Both the position numbers and the translations under genes were made by a program. From Escherichia phage vB_EcoS_MM-1, in sequence record PV577657: DNA of 64,000 bases; one strand, 5' to 3'. Position 1 is the stretch's first letter, and each line of letters starts with the position of its first letter. This document shows, piece after piece, positions 387 through 24,045 of the stretch. The notes under the pieces were generated by a model. The model was not told the origin of the DNA and did no database searches. It was given only the letters and a program-made list of their open reading frames with translations.

Positions 387-469
387 TTTGGTGCACCCTG
401 TTCGTATCGAACGAACCTCTCAAGCTCTTCAGGCAAGCGCTAATCCATCTCAGCTAAAGGTGCAAATTT

Positions 470-546
470 TGGCAAACCTACTAGGACTTGAACCTAGACC
501 GTACGGTTTTGGAGACCGACATGCTGTCCAGTAACACTCTAGGAAT
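470..546 (-). tRNA. tRNA-like gene, possibly anticodon CCA (Trp); degenerate acceptor stem
   Basis: Encoded CCA (TGG on + strand), perfect T-arm CTAGG/TTCAAGT/CCTAG, anticodon-like loop CTCCAAA; acceptor stem has 2 mismatches. Confidence 0.4.
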
Positions 547-553
547 GCAGGAT

Positions 554-630
554 TGGCGTCCTGTGCGGGGATCGAACCCACAAATCCTACCTTGAAAGGG
601 TAGTGACTTTACCAGTTTGTCTAACAGGAC
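554..630 (-). tRNA. tRNA-Glu (anticodon UUC)
   Basis: 7-bp acceptor GTCCTGT/ACAGGAC, T-loop TTCGATC, anticodon stem CTACC/GGTAG with loop CUUUCAA, encoded CCA. Confidence 0.7.
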
Positions 631-637
631 TTAAATT

Positions 638-728
638 TGGTGTTGGATGATGGAGTCGAACCACCCGAGACCCTTCCGAGTCGGCAGATTTACAGTCTGC
701 TTCGCTACCTCTACGATACTAATCCAAC
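638..728 (-). tRNA. tRNA-Tyr (anticodon GUA), long variable arm
   Basis: Acceptor GTTGGAT/ATCCAAC, anticodon arm GCAGA-CUGUAAA-UCUGC (same as the E. coli tRNA-Tyr anticodon arm as I recall it), 88 nt class II, encoded CCA. Confidence 0.7.
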
Positions 729-856
729 ATATTTAAAAGTATTCAAATACTAGTTTAAACACTTTTAGATATGTTTCCAAATTAGATAACTATTATATCA
801 AGTTTTATGGCACTGAGCAAGTCAAATTTTAAAGAACTTGCTCAGTGCTGTATTAG

Positions 857-1132
857 TTAGTCGAACTTAGGAGCGACAGTTAAGGAGAATGGAAGTTCGA
901 AAACTTCTTCGCCCTCATCACTAACAGTAATTACACGACCTTTAAGTTCAGACATTGAAATATCAATATCAGCTTTTGCATCTGGAGCCATGCCAGCTTC
1001 AATACATTTAGCTTTAACTTCCGGCAGAAGTTCTACATCGTAGAAATAAAGCCATTCAATCTCACCTTCCCAGCCTTCCCAGGATTTACAGATTGCACTT
1101 TCAATACCAGTTGCTATAACACGATTTTGCAT
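857..1132 (-). CDS. hypothetical early protein
   Basis: 91-aa ORF with AAGGAG RBS and upstream T5-type promoter. Confidence 0.65.
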   Translation of the reverse strand: MQNRVIATGIESAICKSWEGWEGEIEWLYFYDVELLPEVKAKCIEAGMAPDAKADIDISMSELKGRVITVSDEGEEVFELPFSLTVAPKFD

Positions 1133-1139
1133 TCGTTAA

Positions 1140-1200
1140 CTCCTTCATCAATTTATATAACTATTATACCAGAAATTTAAAGCAAAAGGCAAGTACATTT
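1140..1200 (-). promoter_or_regulatory. T5-type early sigma70 promoter
   Basis: Minus-strand TATAAT followed by conserved ATAAATTGATGAAGGAG initial transcribed region/RBS. Confidence 0.5.
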
Positions 1201-1222
1201 TTAAAAATTCTGTTTGGAGGAG

Positions 1223-1429
1223 CTAAACTCCAGATTCTTCAGCTAAGTCTAGGCTAATAAGAGATATAGCCATAATTGCTGCTCCGTGTTCTCTTTCTCC
1301 TGTCTCTTTAGCTAGGGTTATAATATCAAGAAATTGCTTATGAAAGTCTGCAACCTCTTGAGTCATACCTGCCTCAGCAATCATGCCTTTAAGCATGAAA
1401 CGTTGTGCGGTAATTTCGGGATTAGCCAT
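1223..1429 (-). CDS. hypothetical protein
   Basis: 68-aa ORF, GGAGAAA RBS. Confidence 0.6.
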   Translation of the reverse strand: MANPEITAQRFMLKGMIAEAGMTQEVADFHKQFLDIITLAKETGEREHGAAIMAISLISLDLAEESGV

Positions 1430-1589
1430 GTTGTTTCTCCAGTTTCATGTTTAATAGTCTACAAATAAAATCAATGTCTTCATCTGTGCCTAGATCTCTA
1501 TCTTCAAGAGTTGCCTTGAAGTTTTTCGTCAATTCCATGAGGATAACTTCTCTAGAACGACGTGTTGGCGGAGGTGGATGTCTATACAT
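1422..1589 (-). CDS. small hypothetical protein (55 aa, PPPP motif)
   Basis: Hand-translated ORF MYRHPPPPTRRS... with AAGGA RBS; stop overlaps next start (ATGGCTAA); below ORF-track cutoff. Confidence 0.35.
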   Translation of the reverse strand: MYRHPPPPTRRSREVILMELTKNFKATLEDRDLGTDEDIDFICRLLNMKLEKQHG

Positions 1590-1604
1590 CTTATTTCCTT
1601 AAGT

Positions 1605-1681
1605 TGGTAGGGGTGGTGGGATTCGAACCCACAAAACCTGAATTTTAAGTCCAGTACCTATGCCAATTCGATTACACCCCC
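1605..1681 (-). tRNA. tRNA, anticodon tentatively UAA (Leu-like) but class I length
   Basis: Perfect T-arm GTGGG/TTCGAAT/CCCAC, G1-U72 acceptor, anticodon loop CUUAAAA; D-arm does not fold cleanly by hand. Confidence 0.5.
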
Positions 1682-1782
1682 ATGTAATCAGTTTATTAGT
1701 TGATACATATTATAGCCTAGTGAAAATCCTACTACTAGTCCCACAAACCAACCAATATAATAATCTTTTAGTTTCACAGGTA

Positions 1783-1968
1783 TTATCCTCGTTCAATATC
1801 TAGGGAAACACCGCAGTTAGGATTAATACCTGTACCGTTGCAATTTGAACAAATCCAGATATTGCAAAAAGTATCTCCTGCTTCTGCATCAGAACTTTCA
1901 CCAATTCCCCTACACTCAGGGCAGGCACATTCTTCTAGCTCTTGCTTGAGTTCTTGAAACTTGGACAT
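1783..1968 (-). CDS. small Cys-rich protein, putative zinc ribbon
   Basis: 61 aa with CxCPxC...CxxxxCxxC...C spacing. Confidence 0.6.
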   Translation of the reverse strand: MSKFQELKQELEECACPECRGIGESSDAEAGDTFCNIWICSNCNGTGINPNCGVSLDIERG

Positions 1969-2186
1969 ATAGTCTCCTTAGTCAATTACTTTTGAGGCTT
2001 CAAGGGAGTCGATATAGTATACGTTTTCTACCATAATCATATAATCTGCCACTTTATCCATAGCTTGGGCCTCAGAGGTAGCTCTGGCTAACCTATATCC
2101 TTTTTTATATTCATCCGGGTATTCTCTATCTTGAATAAATACAACATAAACTATGTATAATTCCACTTGTAATCCCCTAATTAAGT

Positions 2187-2264
2187 TGGTGGCTCCCCGA
2201 GGATTCGAACCTACGTACCTTCCGGTTATGAGCCGGGTGCTCATACCATATGAGCTTGAGAACC
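2187..2264 (-). tRNA. tRNA with CAU anticodon (Met or Ile2)
   Basis: D-arm GCTC-ATATGGTAT-GAGC, anticodon arm CCGG-CUCAUAA-CCGG, T-loop TTCGAAT, acceptor with two G-U pairs, encoded CCA. Confidence 0.6.
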
Positions 2265-2270
2265 AGAATT

Positions 2271-2359
2271 TGGCGGAAGAAGTGGGAATCGAACCCACAA
2301 GGCTATATTTCAAACCGACAGATTAGCAATCTGCTGCAATACCGTTATGCTATTCTTCC
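2271..2359 (-). tRNA. tRNA-Ser (anticodon GCU), class II
   Basis: Acceptor GGAAGAA/TTCTTCC, anticodon arm GCAGA-UUGCUAA-UCUGU, long variable arm, T-arm GTGGG/TTCGATT/CCCAC. Confidence 0.6.
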
Positions 2360-5894: not shown

Positions 5895-5969
5895 TGGCCG
5901 AGGTGACAGGATTCGAACCTGCATAAAGGAATTTAGAAGACTCCTGCCTCTCCCTTAGACTACACCCCG
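5895..5969 (-). tRNA. tRNA-Arg (anticodon UCU)
   Basis: Acceptor CGGGGTG/CACCTCG (1 mismatch), anticodon arm GGAGU-CUUCUAA-AUUCC, T-loop TTCGAAT, encoded CCA. Confidence 0.55.
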
Positions 5970-6472
5970 TTTAAGTATTTTTAAGAACTCTCGTAAAAAC
6001 TCTTAAAAATACAGACGATACCGGGAGAGTCATAAGTCTCACTCATTAAGTATTTCAAGACAAAATACAGTAACGTCTATTATTTTCCAGTTTAAGTCAG
6101 GGTGACTTAGTGGTTATGTCCTGCGGTATATTGAGGACTCGGTTAGGCTTGGGGTCATGACTTCCCACCTTTTGCTGCTACTCAACAGGAGTTATCGCGA
6201 ATTACCTGTGCTATTGTGCACCATTAGTGACATCTCTCATGTCAGCATTTCCCACTTTGTGGATAGCTTGAAAAACTACTCCGATATGGAGAAAGAACTT
6301 CACTATCCTAGAATACCTTCTAAAGTTCTTCTTTAGCCTGGACATAGTTAAATCGTAATAAAACTATTCAGCAGACTGGTTGGTTAGTCTGGAACCAACT
6401 ACCGCGTGGTTTAGGCAGTGCGCAACTAACCTCGGAAGCTTTTATGTTAAAAGCATCAGTTATCCAGTTCTT

Positions 6473-6545
6473 ACCGACCGTAGGATTCGAACCTACATCT
6501 TCCACCAGTTACGGCTTGATAATACCAATTATACTAGGACGGCAG
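6473..6545 (-). tRNA. tRNA-like element (perfect T-arm, no clean anticodon arm)
   Basis: GTAGG/TTCGAAT/CCTAC T-arm with partial acceptor pairing; possibly degenerate. Confidence 0.35.
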
Positions 6546-7476: not shown

Positions 7477-7944
7477 TTAAGTTTTAGTGACAACAGGTTT
7501 ATAGAATGTATGTCCCTTAATCTTAGTTGTTTTCTTAAACTTCTTTGTCCAGTAAGGTTTATCTTTACCACTATGGAAGTATAGTGCTCCATATGTAGGA
7601 TCTTGTGGTAAATCAACGTAGTATATCACTCTAGCTAAATTCTTAGCGGTTTGCCAAGCCTCATCAGTTTTATCAACTTTTGGTCTCTTAGATACCCAAG
7701 AGAACTGGTTAGACTGATATACTACTTTACAGTAGGAATCTGGGAATTTACCGGAGTTTACACGGTTTTTAGTAACATGTGCAATCGCCGTCATTCCCTT
7801 TATGCCCTCACCACGACTTTCGAAATAGATATTTTTAGCAATGCAATCTATTTCTTTTGCATCGTGCGATGCCTGACTACTAAAGCTGAAGGTAAGGGCA
7901 GCTACTAAAAGCAAAGCTGCCTTCATTCTTTTTACTCCTGCCAA
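7477..7944 (-). CDS. secreted SleB/CwlJ-like cell-wall hydrolase
   Basis: Signal peptide MKAALLLVAALTFSFSSQA; SleB-like motifs (NIYFES, VTKNRV, QFSW). Confidence 0.7.
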   Translation of the reverse strand: MAGVKRMKAALLLVAALTFSFSSQASHDAKEIDCIAKNIYFESRGEGIKGMTAIAHVTKNRVNSGKFPDSYCKVVYQSNQFSWVSKRPKVDKTDEAWQTAKNLARVIYYVDLPQDPTYGALYFHSGKDKPYWTKKFKKTTKIKGHTFYKPVVTKT

Positions 7945-8249
7945 TCATATTCAACACGATTGGGATTTTCTTTATACCCTAAGTCAAGCAAATCATTACG
8001 CATATTTTGCTTAGCTACTGGGTTCGAGGTTACTAGTACCACTTTCTTTGGTCTCTGCCCAAATTCTAAGAGTAAACGAAGAATTTGATAACCTTCCATA
8101 CCATCTACAGCCAAGTCATTATCCATATAAACGAAATGGCCGGTGGTATCAGTTTTATTCAGAAACTCTACAGCGGCTTCTGGGGTTCGAATGATAATGT
8201 CCATTCCGTGAAGATTACGCACATCATCAATCAAAATATGAAAAGTCAT
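7932..8249 (-). CDS. receiver (REC/CheY-like) domain protein
   Basis: ILIDDV acidic pocket, central MDNDL Asp, VVLVTSNP; CheY-fold spacing. Confidence 0.55.
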   Translation of the reverse strand: MTFHILIDDVRNLHGMDIIIRTPEAAVEFLNKTDTTGHFVYMDNDLAVDGMEGYQILRLLLEFGQRPKKVVLVTSNPVAKQNMRNDLLDLGYKENPNRVEYDWQE

Positions 8250-8320
8250 AATAGCCTCGTTTCATCAATTTAAAAATATATTATACAGATAACTTAGTAA
8301 ATTAGCAAATACATTTTTAA
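8250..8320 (-). promoter_or_regulatory. T5-type early promoter
   Basis: Minus strand TTGCTAATTTACTAAGTTATCTGTATAATATATTTTTAAATTGATGAAACGAGG. Confidence 0.55.
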
Positions 8321-8691
8321 ATTGTGAAACTAGTAAACCGATAAACAGCCTAGAGGCGCCACAGGCCATATCTTATGAGCCATGTACCTTTGATCTAGGG
8401 TTTGAATCATCAACGAATACTTTGCATCTTTTAGCTTTAGAAGTTTAGAAGTTTGAGTTCTTTAAACTTTTCAGCTTTCATACTTAAATGTTGATCTTTG
8501 AAGTTGTGTCGGTAATATCAACGACGCTTTGTTCTTACGTGTCAGCTTAAAAGGCTGGTGTAATAAACATAATCTCCAATAGATTATACTTTATAGTATG
8601 GTCAGCGGTCTTATTTAACCTCGTATTTCAACCGCTGCTGCGAGGTAAGATGCTTGGGCTTTCGTCTACCGATTTACTAGCTTTTAAATTA

Positions 8692-9330
8692 TTACTCTAC
8701 TTCAATGAAGGTAGAGGCGTTAGACTCGGACAGAACAAAATCAACATTTGTTGCAAAGTCCTGGTATTCCTCGTCATGCTGCTTAATCAGCTTCTCCAGT
8801 TCCAGCGGATCAATCAAGAATGGAGTATTCTTGAGTTCCAGCAGGTTGAGCTGCATTTTAACTTCATCTTCGGAAGTTTTCTTATCGCGGGTAGCCATGC
8901 TATCCTGCAAACGCTCATATTTAGCATCAAACTGTGCTTTCTGCGTATTAAACTTAACCGTGGCGGCATGGAACTGCTTACGCATGTTAGCCAGCAGTTG
9001 GGCTTTAAGTTCCATAGAACGCTTAGCTTCAATTGCTTCCGCAACAGTCATTTTACGAGAGCCTATCTCAACGATCGTTTCTGCATTGCTCTTAATCAGA
9101 GCAGCTTTGATACGATCACGCTGGGACATCATATCCAGCAGGGACTGGAAATCTGTCTTAATACGCTCAGATAAATCATCTACTTCGATTGCAGCGCCAA
9201 CTACAACCTTATTTTTATCCTTACCTTCACCAACAGCGATCAGAAGCTGTTGTTCAGTAGCTTTACGGATTTTAGCTTCCAGAGATTTGATAGTTGCCAG
9301 AGCGCGAGTTTTAGAGATACGAGTAGTCAT
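8692..9330 (-). CDS. hypothetical coiled-coil protein
   Basis: 212-aa ORF with AAGGAAG RBS; antisense shadow ORFs overlap. Confidence 0.7.
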   Translation of the reverse strand: MTTRISKTRALATIKSLEAKIRKATEQQLLIAVGEGKDKNKVVVGAAIEVDDLSERIKTDFQSLLDMMSQRDRIKAALIKSNAETIVEIGSRKMTVAEAIEAKRSMELKAQLLANMRKQFHAATVKFNTQKAQFDAKYERLQDSMATRDKKTSEDEVKMQLNLLELKNTPFLIDPLELEKLIKQHDEEYQDFATNVDFVLSESNASTFIEVE

Positions 9331-9636: not shown

Positions 9637-10338
9637 TCAAATTTTCATTTTTTCGATCATAGCTGCAACACAATAGCTCTCAACTAAGGCATCAAATGCT
9701 GGGTCGTGCTTAACCGGATAGATCCCATAACGAATGGTGTCCATCTTCTCCATTTTAGCTATTGCCCAGCTAATACCTTCGGTCTCTAGAGCTTTATAAC
9801 TGTATCCAGCTTGCATCCAGAGGTTACGAAGAGATCGAACATTACCCAAATTCCAGAATTTCCACGGAACTACCTCTTCATTGGTTCCAGCATGGAACGT
9901 GTTTGCAGAGTAGATAGTCATATCAAACTCTGGACCGTTTCCATAATACAAAGCATTTTCGCCTAAAGCCAACTCCATAATATTTTTAGCCATAGAGTAG
10001 GCAGCATAGTTAGAGCCGAGTTTATTAGTGCAATGATGTTTACCATTTTGGAAGGCAATCAGTTTTGGATTACGTTCCTTCATAGCTTCCATAATGTGGA
10101 TAGCAGACGGGCTATTTTTAGCTTGATCCATCCAGAATGCTAGAGTAGATGCTGTAACTTTGGCACCAGAATTAAGTTGATCTTGTACATCCAAAGTAAC
10201 AAATATTAGATCAGGGTCTTTATCAATTCCATGCATAGCCACAAAAGCGAAAGAAGGCATTGCGATATGAGTAGTACCACAATCTCCTGGAGTTCCCAGA
10301 GATTCAATATCTAGCATACCAAATGGTTTTACTTTCAT
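9637..10338 (-). CDS. DEDDh-family 3'-5' exonuclease (DexA-like)
   Basis: Exo I LDIESLG, Exo II NGPEFD, Exo III HDPAFD motifs. Confidence 0.65.
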   Translation of the reverse strand: MKVKPFGMLDIESLGTPGDCGTTHIAMPSFAFVAMHGIDKDPDLIFVTLDVQDQLNSGAKVTASTLAFWMDQAKNSPSAIHIMEAMKERNPKLIAFQNGKHHCTNKLGSNYAAYSMAKNIMELALGENALYYGNGPEFDMTIYSANTFHAGTNEEVVPWKFWNLGNVRSLRNLWMQAGYSYKALETEGISWAIAKMEKMDTIRYGIYPVKHDPAFDALVESYCVAAMIEKMKI

Positions 10339-10366
10339 AACTTATCCTTTATTGTGTAGAAAACTA

Positions 10367-10603
10367 TTAAAGAGACAGCTCTTTAATAGACTCCCACTTC
10401 TTGGGGTCTTTAAAACCAGGAAGCATATCCTCACTGACATCCCAGTTCTCTTCCATAGAGAAGTCGGGCCACTCATTCCAGCTACCTTCCAGCTCTTCAT
10501 AACAGGTATCCATTACCTCATGACTAGAAAGTCGTGTATAATCTCTAGCGGACTTATGAGTGCTAGCACGGTTAAAATCATTCTTTGCTACAAAATTACG
10601 CAT
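10367..10603 (-). CDS. small acidic Trp-rich protein
   Basis: 78 aa; D/E- and W-rich C-terminal half. Confidence 0.55.
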   Translation of the reverse strand: MRNFVAKNDFNRASTHKSARDYTRLSSHEVMDTCYEELEGSWNEWPDFSMEENWDVSEDMLPGFKDPKKWESIKELSL

Positions 10604-10617
10604 AGTTTCTCCAAATA

Positions 10618-10642
10618 AGAGGGGCTTTCGCCCCCTGATTTA
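10618..10642 (-). terminator. stem-loop terminator
   Basis: AGGGGC-TTTC-GCCCCT hairpin. Confidence 0.5.
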
Positions 10643-22364: not shown

Positions 22365-22554
22365 GGGTTTAAACGCCGCTTTGGAAAACGCATTAATGCA
22401 GCACTGGGAAACTGGCTATAAGGATGGTGTTGAATCCTGCGCTACTATGCTAGAAGTTATTGCTAATACCTTAATGGAGAAAGGCAATAAAGAATTAGCT
22501 GAGCTATTAGACAGTATTGGGCAAAACTTCAGAGAACAGGTGAAAAATGCGTAG
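22333..22554 (+). CDS. hypothetical protein
   Basis: 73-aa ORF. Confidence 0.5.
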   Translation: MAFSKPMLPDKGLNAALENALMQHWETGYKDGVESCATMLEVIANTLMEKGNKELAELLDSIGQNFREQVKNA

Positions 22555-23383
22555 ATTAATTATTATTAGCGGTGCAGGTTTGAGTGTTGAAAGTGGTGTA
22601 CGAGCTTTTCGTACTGATACTGCTAGTGGTAAAGCATTGTGGGATGACTATGATCTAGAAGAAGTATGTAATATTCATGCCTTTCGTGGTAATTTTTATC
22701 ATAAAACCCACATGTTTTACAACAAGCGTCGTGAAGAGCTAAAAACTGTTGAACCCAATCTTGCGCATTTGCGTATTGGTGAATGGTATAAACAATATCC
22801 AGGTCAAGTAGTAAACTTGACTACCAACGTTGATGACCTTATTGAGCGTGCTGGCGTCCCACATAGTGACATTCTGCACATTCACGGATATTTAAAAGAG
22901 GTTGTTGTAGCTGATAGCTACAATAGTAGCAATAAACGGATTATTGATGTAGGATACAATTCTATTGATCCAGATGATTATAAATGGGTTAAACCTAATG
23001 TAATCTTCTTTGGAGAGCATGCTCCTGCATACGCAGAAATGTATAATGTTTTTGATGGTATTACCAGTCAAGATATGATCATTGTGGTTGGTTGCTCTAA
23101 CCAAGTAATTAACTTCTACTGGGAATTATTTCCTGTTCTTAATTTGACTGCTGCGAAACTTATGGTTGTTAACTACTATGATAGTGCCCTCGCAGCGGAA
23201 CCGGTCTATCAAGGTATGACTCGTAGTGAGATGTACCAGCTGGAGGAACGCGGTATCCCTTACTGGAGTAAAGGTGCGGTAGATGCTTTCAGTGACCCTG
23301 ATTTTATTGCTCGTGTAGAAGCTCATTTAGAGGGTAGACCTTATGTGTCGAGAAGCAAGAGAAACAGGTATGTCCATAGTTAA
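22547..23383 (+). CDS. Sir2-family (sirtuin-like) NAD-dependent protein
   Basis: GAGLSVESGVRAFR NAD-binding motif, NVDDLIERAG, HIHG catalytic His; no obvious Zn-Cys module. Confidence 0.75.
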   Translation: MRRLIIISGAGLSVESGVRAFRTDTASGKALWDDYDLEEVCNIHAFRGNFYHKTHMFYNKRREELKTVEPNLAHLRIGEWYKQYPGQVVNLTTNVDDLIERAGVPHSDILHIHGYLKEVVVADSYNSSNKRIIDVGYNSIDPDDYKWVKPNVIFFGEHAPAYAEMYNVFDGITSQDMIIVVGCSNQVINFYWELFPVLNLTAAKLMVVNYYDSALAAEPVYQGMTRSEMYQLEERGIPYWSKGAVDAFSDPDFIARVEAHLEGRPYVSRSKRNRYVHS

Positions 23384-23552
23384 ATCTGTATATACACATC
23401 CCGACGATATATTTGTATGGGCAGATGGTAGTTGGTGCTATCGCTGTGAGCTGTGGGAGATGGACTATAAATCCGATGACTATGGTGTTATATATGTTGA
23501 TACGGTTGAGTATGATACGTTCTTAGAAAGGAACAAAAATGGAAATAAGTAA
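23370..23552 (+). CDS. small hypothetical protein
   Basis: ORF-track 23343..23552; probable start MSIVKSVY. Confidence 0.45.
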   Translation: MSIVKSVYTHPDDIFVWADGSWCYRCELWEMDYKSDDYGVIYVDTVEYDTFLERNKNGNK

Positions 23553-24045
23553 TACTCCAATTATTTTTCTAGATATTGATGGGGTGCTCAATTCGAGCAT
23601 CTCCCACCATCATGCACCTGATGACGAAAAGATTTTCTTTGGAAGTGACTGGGTTTTCAAGCCGCTTCTCAAGGCTTTTCAGGACTTTATTCGTCCTTCT
23701 CCAATAATGATTGTTGGAGTATCATCTTGGTTCTCTGTCAGAAATGAGATGGAGAACGTTCAGATTATGACCGGATTAGGTCTTATCGATCGTTTTCTTG
23801 GTACAACGGATTTTACTGGGGGTGGGTTATCTAGGGGTAATTCTGTCCTTCGCTTCGTTGAAAAGCATAAGCTCAAACATTGGTGTGTTCTGGATGACGC
23901 TGGTGCTATGATGTATCAGTATCCAACGGTTATAGTCAACGGTAGAACTGGAATAAATCTTCAAGATTTAATGGCTGTTAGCTATATGTTAGAGTTTAGT
24001 CCAGATCTTGAAATGTGTAAATCCTTACAACAATTTAAGGTGTAA
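23539..24045 (+). CDS. HAD-superfamily hydrolase-like protein
   Basis: N-terminal FLDIDGVLN motif (HAD motif I); 168 aa. Confidence 0.65.
   Translation: MEISNTPIIFLDIDGVLNSSISHHHAPDDEKIFFGSDWVFKPLLKAFQDFIRPSPIMIVGVSSWFSVRNEMENVQIMTGLGLIDRFLGTTDFTGGGLSRGNSVLRFVEKHKLKHWCVLDDAGAMMYQYPTVIVNGRTGINLQDLMAVSYMLEFSPDLEMCKSLQQFKV

Follow-up and report, generated by a model that had tools for sequence, protein, structure and literature searches.

T5.084 of T5-like phages, a stand-alone protein of the cREC family and a possible phosphoesterase of RNA 3' ends

What might a small receiver-like protein do in a phage with no apparent signalling partner for it? We asked this of an open reading frame (ORF) at positions 7932-8249 (minus strand) of a 64,000-nt stretch of DNA from Escherichia phage vB_EcoS_MM-1 (record PV577657; hereafter the window). 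The ORF starts with ATG and encodes 105 amino acids. A first-pass annotation had described its product as an orphan receiver (REC)-like protein with its own early promoter, which could sequester phosphoryl groups from host two-component systems or bind a small-molecule signal. The DNA around the ORF is 100% identical to that of Escherichia phage vB_EcoS_MM-2 (Tequintavirus) and ∼98-99% identical to that of many T5-like phages (Tequintavirus, Demerecviridae). Synteny makes the ORF the ortholog of T5.084, a gene that the phage T5 record annotates as 'hypothetical protein; similar to KVP40.0304'. A tblastn search found the protein in 493 phage records (∼400 T5-likes, 50 Vibrio KVP40-type T4-likes and a few from other groups), and it matched PHROG 1479 (E=3.8e-30). 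The T5.084-type ORF is a real gene under strong purifying selection, with ratios of non-synonymous to synonymous substitution rates (dN/dS) of 0.05-0.13 in pairwise comparisons among T5-like orthologs with unsaturated synonymous sites.

The product is almost certainly a stand-alone member of the cREC family. It scored 56.8 bits against Pfam PF20274 (cREC_REC; cutoff 27, E=3.8e-15), with residues 4-87 aligned to profile positions 2-86, i.e. to 85 of the 88 positions, whereas the canonical receiver profile PF00072 gave 12.5 bits against a gathering cutoff of 30.2 (E=0.17). All 61 homologs that we found carried PF20274, except for one truncated protein. Near-identical proteins of T5-like phages are already labelled cREC in UniRef and NCBI, and the nearest viral structure models in BFVD were other cREC proteins. 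Within a library of 1.84 billion proteins the family formed 434 clusters at 50% identity, nearly all of them stand-alone and ∼100 amino acids long. A search of NCBIfam with the protein gave no match, and a profile search of PDB sequences found no solved structure of a sequence relative. The TAL-effector matches of the latter search (E values down to 5e-17) were rejected as an artefact, being the sum of 16-17 individually insignificant repeat matches; their source is the strand-4 motif P..VvLVTSNPv (lPkkVvLVTSNP), which weakly resembles the 34-residue TAL-effector repeat (LTPxQVVAIASNxGG).

The cREC, or cyclic-phosphate processing receiver, domain was defined by Iyer, Aravind et al. as a divergent and mostly phage-encoded receiver domain (Viruses 13:63, 2021; Viruses 14:1977, 2022; PMC7824862 section 3.4.8; PMC9503650 sections 3.4.5 and 3.7.3). 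It was reported never to occur with histidine kinases (PMC7824862). Its gene neighbourhoods were linked to RNA ligases, sirtuins, Nudix, 2H and WYL genes, and it was predicted to open cyclic phosphates on RNA ends (2',3'>P) or ADP-ribose 1''-2'' cyclic phosphate (ADPr>P) (PMC7824862, PMC9503650). The authors called the family 'experimentally uncharacterized' (PMC9503650). The gene thus belongs to a family that is already described and named, and its membership of PF20274 refutes the idea that it is an unexplained orphan (PMC7824862, PMC9503650). The structural part of the earlier description held: both the sequence and a structure model agree with a 105-residue, single-domain, CheY-fold-like protein that has neither a second domain nor an output domain.

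Could T5.084 work as a classical receiver? The structure model is receiver-like (flavodoxin-like), in line with the fold proposed earlier, and the acidic pair (D8-D9, after strand 1) and the central Asp (D43) named in the first-pass annotation are present, the latter together with D45. The secondary structure assigned by DSSP comprises strands 4-7, 18-20, 39-42, 69-72 and 100-102 and only three helices (23-32, 53-62 and 77-89). Helices are missing between strands 1 and 2 (alpha1) and past strand 5 (alpha5). Kinases and phosphotransfer proteins dock on receivers mainly through alpha1. We measured conservation in 161 family members, non-redundant at 60% identity. D8, D9, D43, D45, G53 and N76 were 99-100% invariant (each of the four Asp residues in 160/160 or 160/161 members), R11 and R21 were Arg or Lys in at least 99%, position 74 was Thr or Ser in every member, and P67 and Y92 were ∼90% conserved. 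No conserved Lys was found in the C-terminal third at the strand-5 position of CheY K109, where only G91 and Y92 were conserved. T5.084 retains all the family-conserved residues, with A47 as the sole deviation (Gly in 93% of members, in the motif DxDLG).

Comparison with CheY, Spo0F, PhoB and NtrC by hhalign was weak (probability 26%) and in register with the fold. It equated D43 with CheY D57, D45 with N59 (two residues past the phospho-acceptor, D+2), G53 with G65, T74 with T87 and N76 with E89 (two residues past the Thr, T+2). In signalling receivers, D+2 and T+2 are variable positions that tune the lifetime of the phosphoryl group; in cREC they are frozen as Asp and Asn.

These data bear on a reading in which T5.084 is a classical phospho-acceptor receiver, draining phosphoryl groups from histidine kinases or acetyl phosphate, or a decoy response regulator that rewires host two-component signalling. 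Its appeal is that the receiver fold and the D-D / D / T phosphorylation residues are present, and single-domain receivers acting as phosphate sinks are known in bacteria. We nevertheless consider it most improbable. PF00072 stays far below threshold, the usual kinase-docking surface (alpha1), alpha5 and the conserved Lys are all missing, and D+2 and T+2 are invariant where signalling receivers vary. Searches for related loci with two narrower alignments gave 7 viral loci (A3) and 20 viral loci plus 4 from bacterial genome contigs (A4). To look at genomic partners we used 26 lineages, split solely by cREC identity below 80%; neighbours were surveyed over ±3 genes. No kinase-like ORF was detected at E<=1 with EnvZ, PhoR or CheA as queries among 2840 ORFs of the 64-kb window and the 26-lineage loci, in agreement with the earlier statement that there is no cognate kinase, although such single-sequence phmmer searches have limited sensitivity. 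Neither a histidine kinase nor a phosphotransfer partner is annotated in the T5 regions that we viewed, and the family as a whole was reported never to accompany histidine kinases (PMC7824862). Moreover, the family is conserved in enterobacterial T5-likes, Vibrio T4-likes and uncultured phages alike, which speaks against a single host kinase as the target. The suggested sequestration of phosphoryl groups from host two-component systems is therefore not borne out: the canonical profile, alpha1, alpha5, the Lys and, in 26 lineages, a kinase neighbour all fail to appear.

If not a phospho-switch, what could the conserved pocket do? The catalytic arrangement of HAD phosphatases consists of a DxD pair, a Ser or Thr, a basic residue and an acidic pair, and the CheZ and CheX phosphatases speed hydrolysis by inserting an amide side chain into the CheY site. 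Because D+2 and T+2 of cREC are frozen as Asp and Asn, which provides both a HAD-like DxD set and a CheZ/CheX-like amide, we infer by analogy that cREC may be a receiver scaffold with built-in phosphatase features. We propose, with a confidence somewhat short of even, that T5.084 is an early-expressed phosphoesterase that acts on phosphorylated RNA 3' ends, likeliest those of tRNA cut by host nucleases, and/or on ADPr>P.

According to this proposal, a phospho-switch with a receiver (CheY-like) fold would have evolved into a small hydrolase. The acidic pocket of D8, D9 and D43 at the C-terminal edge of the sheet would bind a divalent metal and the phosphate ester, and D43, the counterpart of CheY D57, would attack the phosphorus to form an aspartyl-phosphate intermediate. 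D45 (D+2) would serve as general acid/base, like the second Asp of the HAD DxD motif, while N76 (T+2) would position the hydrolytic water, like the Asn or Gln that CheX and CheZ phosphatases supply in trans; T74, R11 and R21 would hold the phosphate oxygens. The likeliest substrates would be a 2',3'-cyclic phosphate or a 2'/3'-phosphate on cleaved tRNA. An alternative or additional substrate might be ADP-ribose 1''-2'' cyclic phosphate, produced by a sirtuin or by KptA-type 2'-phosphate removal.

The T5-type cREC protein would be made early and would act alongside the phage tRNA array, a SIR2 and HAD_SAK gene pair and an Rv2179c-like exoribonuclease, its purpose being a usable tRNA pool when host nucleases cut tRNA. 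T5 appears to be without an RNA ligase of the Rnl1 type, and the useful product may then be a plain 2',3'-diol end. Speculatively, the exoribonuclease might trim such a clean end for the host CCA-adding enzyme to rebuild, or host RtcB might seal it. The tRNA islands of T5-like phages defeat tRNA-cleaving defences by supplying replacement tRNAs (PMC11555353), and a repair activity encoded beside the island would be complementary to these. A specific form of the proposal is that T5-type phages run a ligase-independent tRNA 3'-end rescue pathway composed of the cREC hydrolase (with its built-in D+2 Asp and T+2 Asn), SIR2/HAD_SAK, the Rv2179c-like exoribonuclease and the host CCA-adding enzyme. 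We regard this full pathway as unlikely; if it did exist, it would form a second layer beside the replacement tRNAs against tRNA-cleaving defences.

Do the neighbourhoods of relatives fit a role in RNA repair? A tRNA gene lay within 2 kb of cREC in 5 of the 26 lineages, compared to 1 of 67 control lineages anchored on phage thymidylate synthase (Fisher p=0.006). Within 6 kb the counts were 8/26 versus 5/67 (p=0.007), and when the window and My1 were left out, the p values became 0.016 (2 kb) and 0.034 (6 kb). tRNA genes are enriched near cREC, a difference whose direction is clear in a small sample with an imperfect control. An array of 28 tRNAs lies 2 kb upstream of the KVP40-type homolog, the L023 group has cREC inside an 11-tRNA cluster, and on two unrelated uncultured-phage contigs a tRNA gene is only 8 nt (L015) or 26 nt (L035) from the cREC ORF. 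We also noted that cREC of phage SP15 (HWA82_gp140, at 41.5 kb) is located ∼6-7 kb beyond a tRNA-Tyr gene. The anti-retron factor of SP15, ORF75, lies in an 8-kb tRNA-rich region, and cREC probably falls outside that region and would then not be ORF75.

Two relatives combine cREC directly with RNA-repair genes. At the locus L026, whose cREC is 36% identical to T5.084 (E 2.5e-14) and lies 4.7 kb from eight tRNA genes, the cREC, P-loop (AAA_33) kinase and T4 Rnl1-type RNA ligase genes overlap in turn and are followed by two calcineurin-like phosphoesterases. Proteus phage Mydo has RNA ligase (gp169), cREC (gp168, E 1.3e-10 against the family hidden Markov model (HMM) that we built), kinase (gp167), gp166 and Sir2 (gp165), in this order, with a MazG-type pyrophosphohydrolase farther downstream. 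These two cassettes confirm the published cREC neighbourhood. The window carries genes of the same kind: its SIR2-family protein (T5.102 type) is 62% identical to the Mydo sirtuin, and a gene for a 'Swiss Army Knife' RNA-repair HAD phosphatase (HAD_SAK_2) lies near it. In the window cREC adjoins neither RNA-repair nor NAD+/ADPr-processing genes, whereas L026 and Mydo show direct operons; the same sirtuin recurs in the two cultured groups that have this type of cREC, the T5-likes and the 50 KVP40-likes. One small ORF separates the SIR2 and HAD_SAK_2 genes of the window (22547-24045, plus strand). In the MM-2 record both are labelled 'Sir2 NAD-dependent deacetylase', and by Pfam the second is a HAD-family phosphatase.

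Other neighbours recurred less often. A gene resembling the L7/L12 C-terminal domain was directly downstream of cREC in 4 of the 26 lineages, all from uncultured phages, and overlapped the cREC 3' end (L006 6306-6659, L010 2182-2739, L012 10329-10886 and L013 10309-10671). SprT-like genes were found near cREC in two lineages, the Rv2179c-like family within three genes in three lineages (the two that could be identified are both Demerecviridae), and Tad3, HD_4, Nuc_deoxyri_tr2 and SIR2 once each. At L016 we observed tandem cREC genes (9995-10306 and 10308-10634), the second far more divergent (E 2e-5 against the family HMM). ESCO9_244 of phage ESCO9, which is encoded beside an RNA ligase and a kinase, was considered as a further cREC and rejected, as it is a coiled-coil protein with no HMM match. 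For DUF2828/DUF7788 in the KVP40-type neighbourhood, the literature gave nothing useful on a link to RNA repair.

The same neighbourhoods can be read in another way. Instead of repairing RNA, T5.084 might hydrolyse or sequester a soluble immune or stress nucleotide and so blunt a host defence, for example Thoeris or an NAD+-centred system. The nucleotide could be a cyclic ADP-ribose isomer, ADPr 1''-2'' cyclic phosphate, ADPR-1''-phosphate, a 2',3'-cNMP or a cyclic oligoadenylate that ends in >P. Of the two predictions published for cREC, this reading represents one (PMC7824862 section 3.4.8; PMC9503650 section 3.4.5), and it overlaps the earlier idea that the protein binds a small-molecule signal. 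At L026 a homolog of Tad3, the type I Thoeris inhibitor (8840-9289; Pfam PF25185, 2e-35), is encoded downstream of the eight tRNA genes and two genes upstream of the cREC-kinase-ligase cassette, an arrangement that looks like a compact counter-defence island. SIR2, Nuc_deoxyri_tr2 and an HD domain each appear once among the nearest neighbours, and cREC sits among small early accessory genes, a typical place for anti-defence genes. Phage ADPR-1''-phosphate phosphatases do exist, but these are Macro domains (bioRxiv 10.64898/2026.01.28.702374). On the other hand, the T5.084-like branch shows no recurrent linkage to NAD+ or ADPr enzymes, its recurrent neighbours being related to RNA and translation; an invariant pocket that is entirely acidic (DD + DxD) fits metal-assisted chemistry better than a nucleotide sponge; and the protein matched no PADLOC model. 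Taken together, we find this explanation doubtful, but worth keeping in mind.

Several observations also weigh against a phosphoesterase of RNA ends. As many as 18 of the 26 lineages have no tRNA gene within 6 kb, tRNA islands may simply collect accessory genes, and the lineage sample is small and separated by the cREC identity threshold alone. The neighbourhoods are otherwise mixed (L7/L12-like, SprT-like, thymidylate synthase, Tad3), and the direct partner of cREC in T5-likes is a cell-wall hydrolase gene, with no RNA-repair enzyme adjoining. By tblastn an Rnl1-type RNA ligase was present in only 14 Salmonella phage records versus 269 carrying cREC. T5-likes appear to be without this ligase, and therefore the classical heal-and-seal pathway would be incomplete in them. 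The catalytic roles suggested for D45 and N76 are drawn from analogy, and while we assume a metal, the published papers call the cREC site metal-independent (PMC7824862, PMC9503650). Finally, our literature search found no biochemical or genetic experiment on any cREC protein or on T5.084, and the HIDEN-SEQ essentiality paper did not cover T5-like phages.

The positions of cREC and the features around it are collected in Table 1. The gene is 1.4-2 kb from the end of the tRNA island, where Rfam matched two tRNAs with 49.3 and 35.5 bits. The weaker of them (gathering score 29) is absent from the ARAGORN output; it falls in the region of the stable 'RNAX' of T5 and is listed as 'tRNA-OTHER' in the MM-2 record. 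T5.087, three genes upstream of cREC, encodes a Rv2179c-like domain and is a candidate partner in RNA 3'-end processing. Its public labels ('exonuclease', 'putative metallopeptidase') look unreliable against this domain match, as does the label 'tail fiber protein' for T5.085 (8692-9330, minus strand), an early-region gene without a Pfam match.

Table 1. cREC and selected features of the window
Feature	Position	Strand	Basis and remarks
Six further tRNAs	389-2359		ARAGORN
tRNA-Arg(TCT), nearest end of the phage tRNA island	5895..5969	-	ARAGORN
tRNA-like gene, end of the tRNA island	6472..6543	-	Rfam
SleB-type cell-wall hydrolase gene (T5.083)	7477..7926	-	Pfam Hydrolase_2, 3.4e-25; annotation; N-terminal signal-like segment
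cREC gene, T5.084 ortholog (105 aa)	7932..8249	-	Family-invariant residues D8, D9, R11, D17, R21, D43, D45, G53, P67, T74, N76 and Y92 present
Shine-Dalgarno-like GAGG	8255..8258	-	5 nt from ATG; read from sequence
Sigma-70-type promoter-like site (predicted)	8280..8308	-	TTGCTA (8308-8303), 17-nt spacer, TATAAT (8285-8280); 10/12 consensus match
Rv2179c-like 3'-5' exoribonuclease-domain gene (T5.087)	9637..10338	-	Pfam PF16473, 3.6e-08; three genes upstream of cREC
SIR2-family gene (T5.102 type)	22547..23383	+	Pfam SIR2, 8.1e-25; 14.3 kb from cREC
HAD_SAK_2 gene, RNA-repair HAD phosphatase	23539..24045	+	Pfam PF18143, 4e-20; near the SIR2 gene

Is the adjoining hydrolase the functional partner of cREC? 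The hydrolase ATG is located 5 nt past the cREC stop codon and its ribosome-binding site (GGAG, 7938-7935) lies within the cREC 3' end; judging by this layout, the two genes are probably co-transcribed and translationally coupled. The list of ORFs had placed the hydrolase start at a TTG (7944, a 13-nt overlap with cREC), but the annotated ATG at 7926, which follows the GGAG, is more likely the true start. The N-terminal sequence of the hydrolase, MKAALLLVAALTFSFSSQA, resembles a signal peptide, an unusual feature beside a gene for a cytoplasmic enzyme. The arrangement suggests that cREC could be a non-catalytic adaptor or regulator, a partner of the SleB-type hydrolase in peptidoglycan remodelling during lysis or entry, or else of a translation factor. 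Besides the coupling, the cREC-hydrolase order is kept across Markadamsvirinae, and the L7/L12-like gene directly follows cREC in four other lineages. However, the hydrolase pairing is restricted to one subfamily, within which a homing endonuclease (Ace) or an extra ORF (KKP_3711) separates the two genes, and My1 and the KVP40-likes do not show the pairing at all. For these reasons we discarded the hydrolase connection as the leading explanation. Only the hydrolase has a signal-like N-terminus, so the compartments of the two proteins likely differ, and seven charged or polar residues of the pocket hardly vary among the 161 members, which points to chemistry and not to a binding surface. An adaptor role of either kind seems to us very unlikely.

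The endonuclease insertion in Ace is one of several. HNH homing endonuclease genes are inserted directly beside cREC in some T5-likes, and one database protein of 273 amino acids is an HNH-cREC fusion (phage Ace, L042 1823-2347; protein P0062; H66, Kenya-K44). Two cREC alleles, of the ende and the Ace type, are ∼57% identical and lie behind nearly identical upstream DNA. These observations suggest that homing drove the replacement or divergence of cREC alleles.

The first-pass annotation had also assigned cREC its own early promoter. A promoter-like site is indeed present upstream of the gene (Table 1), is kept across Tequintavirus and Epseptimavirus, and coincides with an unnamed promoter annotation at the equivalent position of the T5 reference record. 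Nevertheless, a scan with the promoter consensus found 3 sites versus 4.4 expected in such AT-rich DNA, i.e. not above chance, and the promoter segment is deleted in the relative KKP_3711. Conservation is no specific mark of the promoter either, since it extends over the entire intergenic region. An own early promoter is thus a plausible prediction from the sequence and is not demonstrated.

The intergenic region itself, between T5.085 and T5.084 (8250-8691, minus strand), is a non-coding stretch of 440 nt, conserved in Tequintavirus and Epseptimavirus at least as well as the flanking genes. Its core, CATGGCTCATAAGATATGGCCTGTGGCGCCTCTAGGCTGTTTATCGG, is retained in KKP_3711 despite a cREC protein that is only 49% identical there. 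The stretch includes GGCGCC, which resembles the T5 nick-site consensus, and a mini-ORF of seven codons (about 8575-8549) that has a GGAG of its own. A stem predicted upstream of the promoter has three compensatory pairs, a covariation that comes from a single divergent sequence. As a stable RNA element or terminator this stem was rejected, its folding energy (z=-0.51) being not significant.

What, then, does the locus add? A correct fold call on an already named gene adds little by itself; what is new here is that tRNA genes are enriched around cREC, that D+2 and T+2 do not vary and that SIR2 and HAD_SAK are found in the same genome. Beyond a phosphoesterase and the alternatives weighed above, we leave the remaining probability to chemistry not yet imagined. 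The value of the locus is its tractability, as cREC is a widespread phage family with a specific enzymatic prediction and T5 a classical phage that lends itself to genetic work. If the proposal is true, a signalling fold would have been converted into a hydrolase, and in the form of the rescue pathway T5.084 would be the first receiver domain demonstrated to be a dedicated nucleic-acid phosphoesterase.

Finally, we compared T5.084 with the systems it resembles. To the cREC family it conforms closely: it passes the PF20274 threshold, keeps the family-invariant residues, is phage-encoded, stand-alone, ∼100 amino acids long and without a kinase, and its genome carries sirtuin and HAD_SAK genes, both tied to the family (PMC7824862, PMC9503650). 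It differs in having Ala47 for the Gly of DxDLG and in its location, beside a tRNA island and coupled to a hydrolase instead of adjoining an RNA ligase, Nudix, 2H or sirtuin gene. With canonical receivers (CheY, Spo0F; PF00072) it shares the acidic pocket D8/D9, the phospho-acceptor D43 and T74 after strand 4. However, it has three helices instead of five, so that its (beta-alpha)5 fold is incomplete, and it lacks an equivalent of Lys109, a kinase and an output domain. It has an invariant Asp at D+2 and Asn at T+2, and also two invariant Arg residues (R11, R21) that are absent from signalling receivers. The active-site geometry of HAD phosphatases is known to resemble that of CheY. T5.084 may be compared with them (the T4 Pnkp 3'-phosphatase/cyclic phosphodiesterase domain, HAD_SAK) solely in the way it would work, through an Asp nucleophile, a second Asp at +2 (DxD), a Ser/Thr, a basic residue and an acidic pair; the genomic company, RNA ligase and polynucleotide kinase, is also similar. 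The fold families are different, the HAD DxD lying on strand 1 with squiggle, flap and cap and the cREC motif on strand 3, and we detected no sequence relationship between cREC and HAD proteins. The 2H phosphoesterases (LigT/ThpR, the cyclic phosphodiesterase domain of tRNA ligase, phage Acb1-like proteins) have the same job that is predicted for cREC, opening 2',3'-cyclic or 1''-2'' cyclic phosphates, and occur in the same kinds of phage neighbourhoods (PMC9503650). Their fold is unrelated, and T5.084 has no H-x-T/S motif (its His residues stand in H4 HIL, H14 HGM and H38 HFV).

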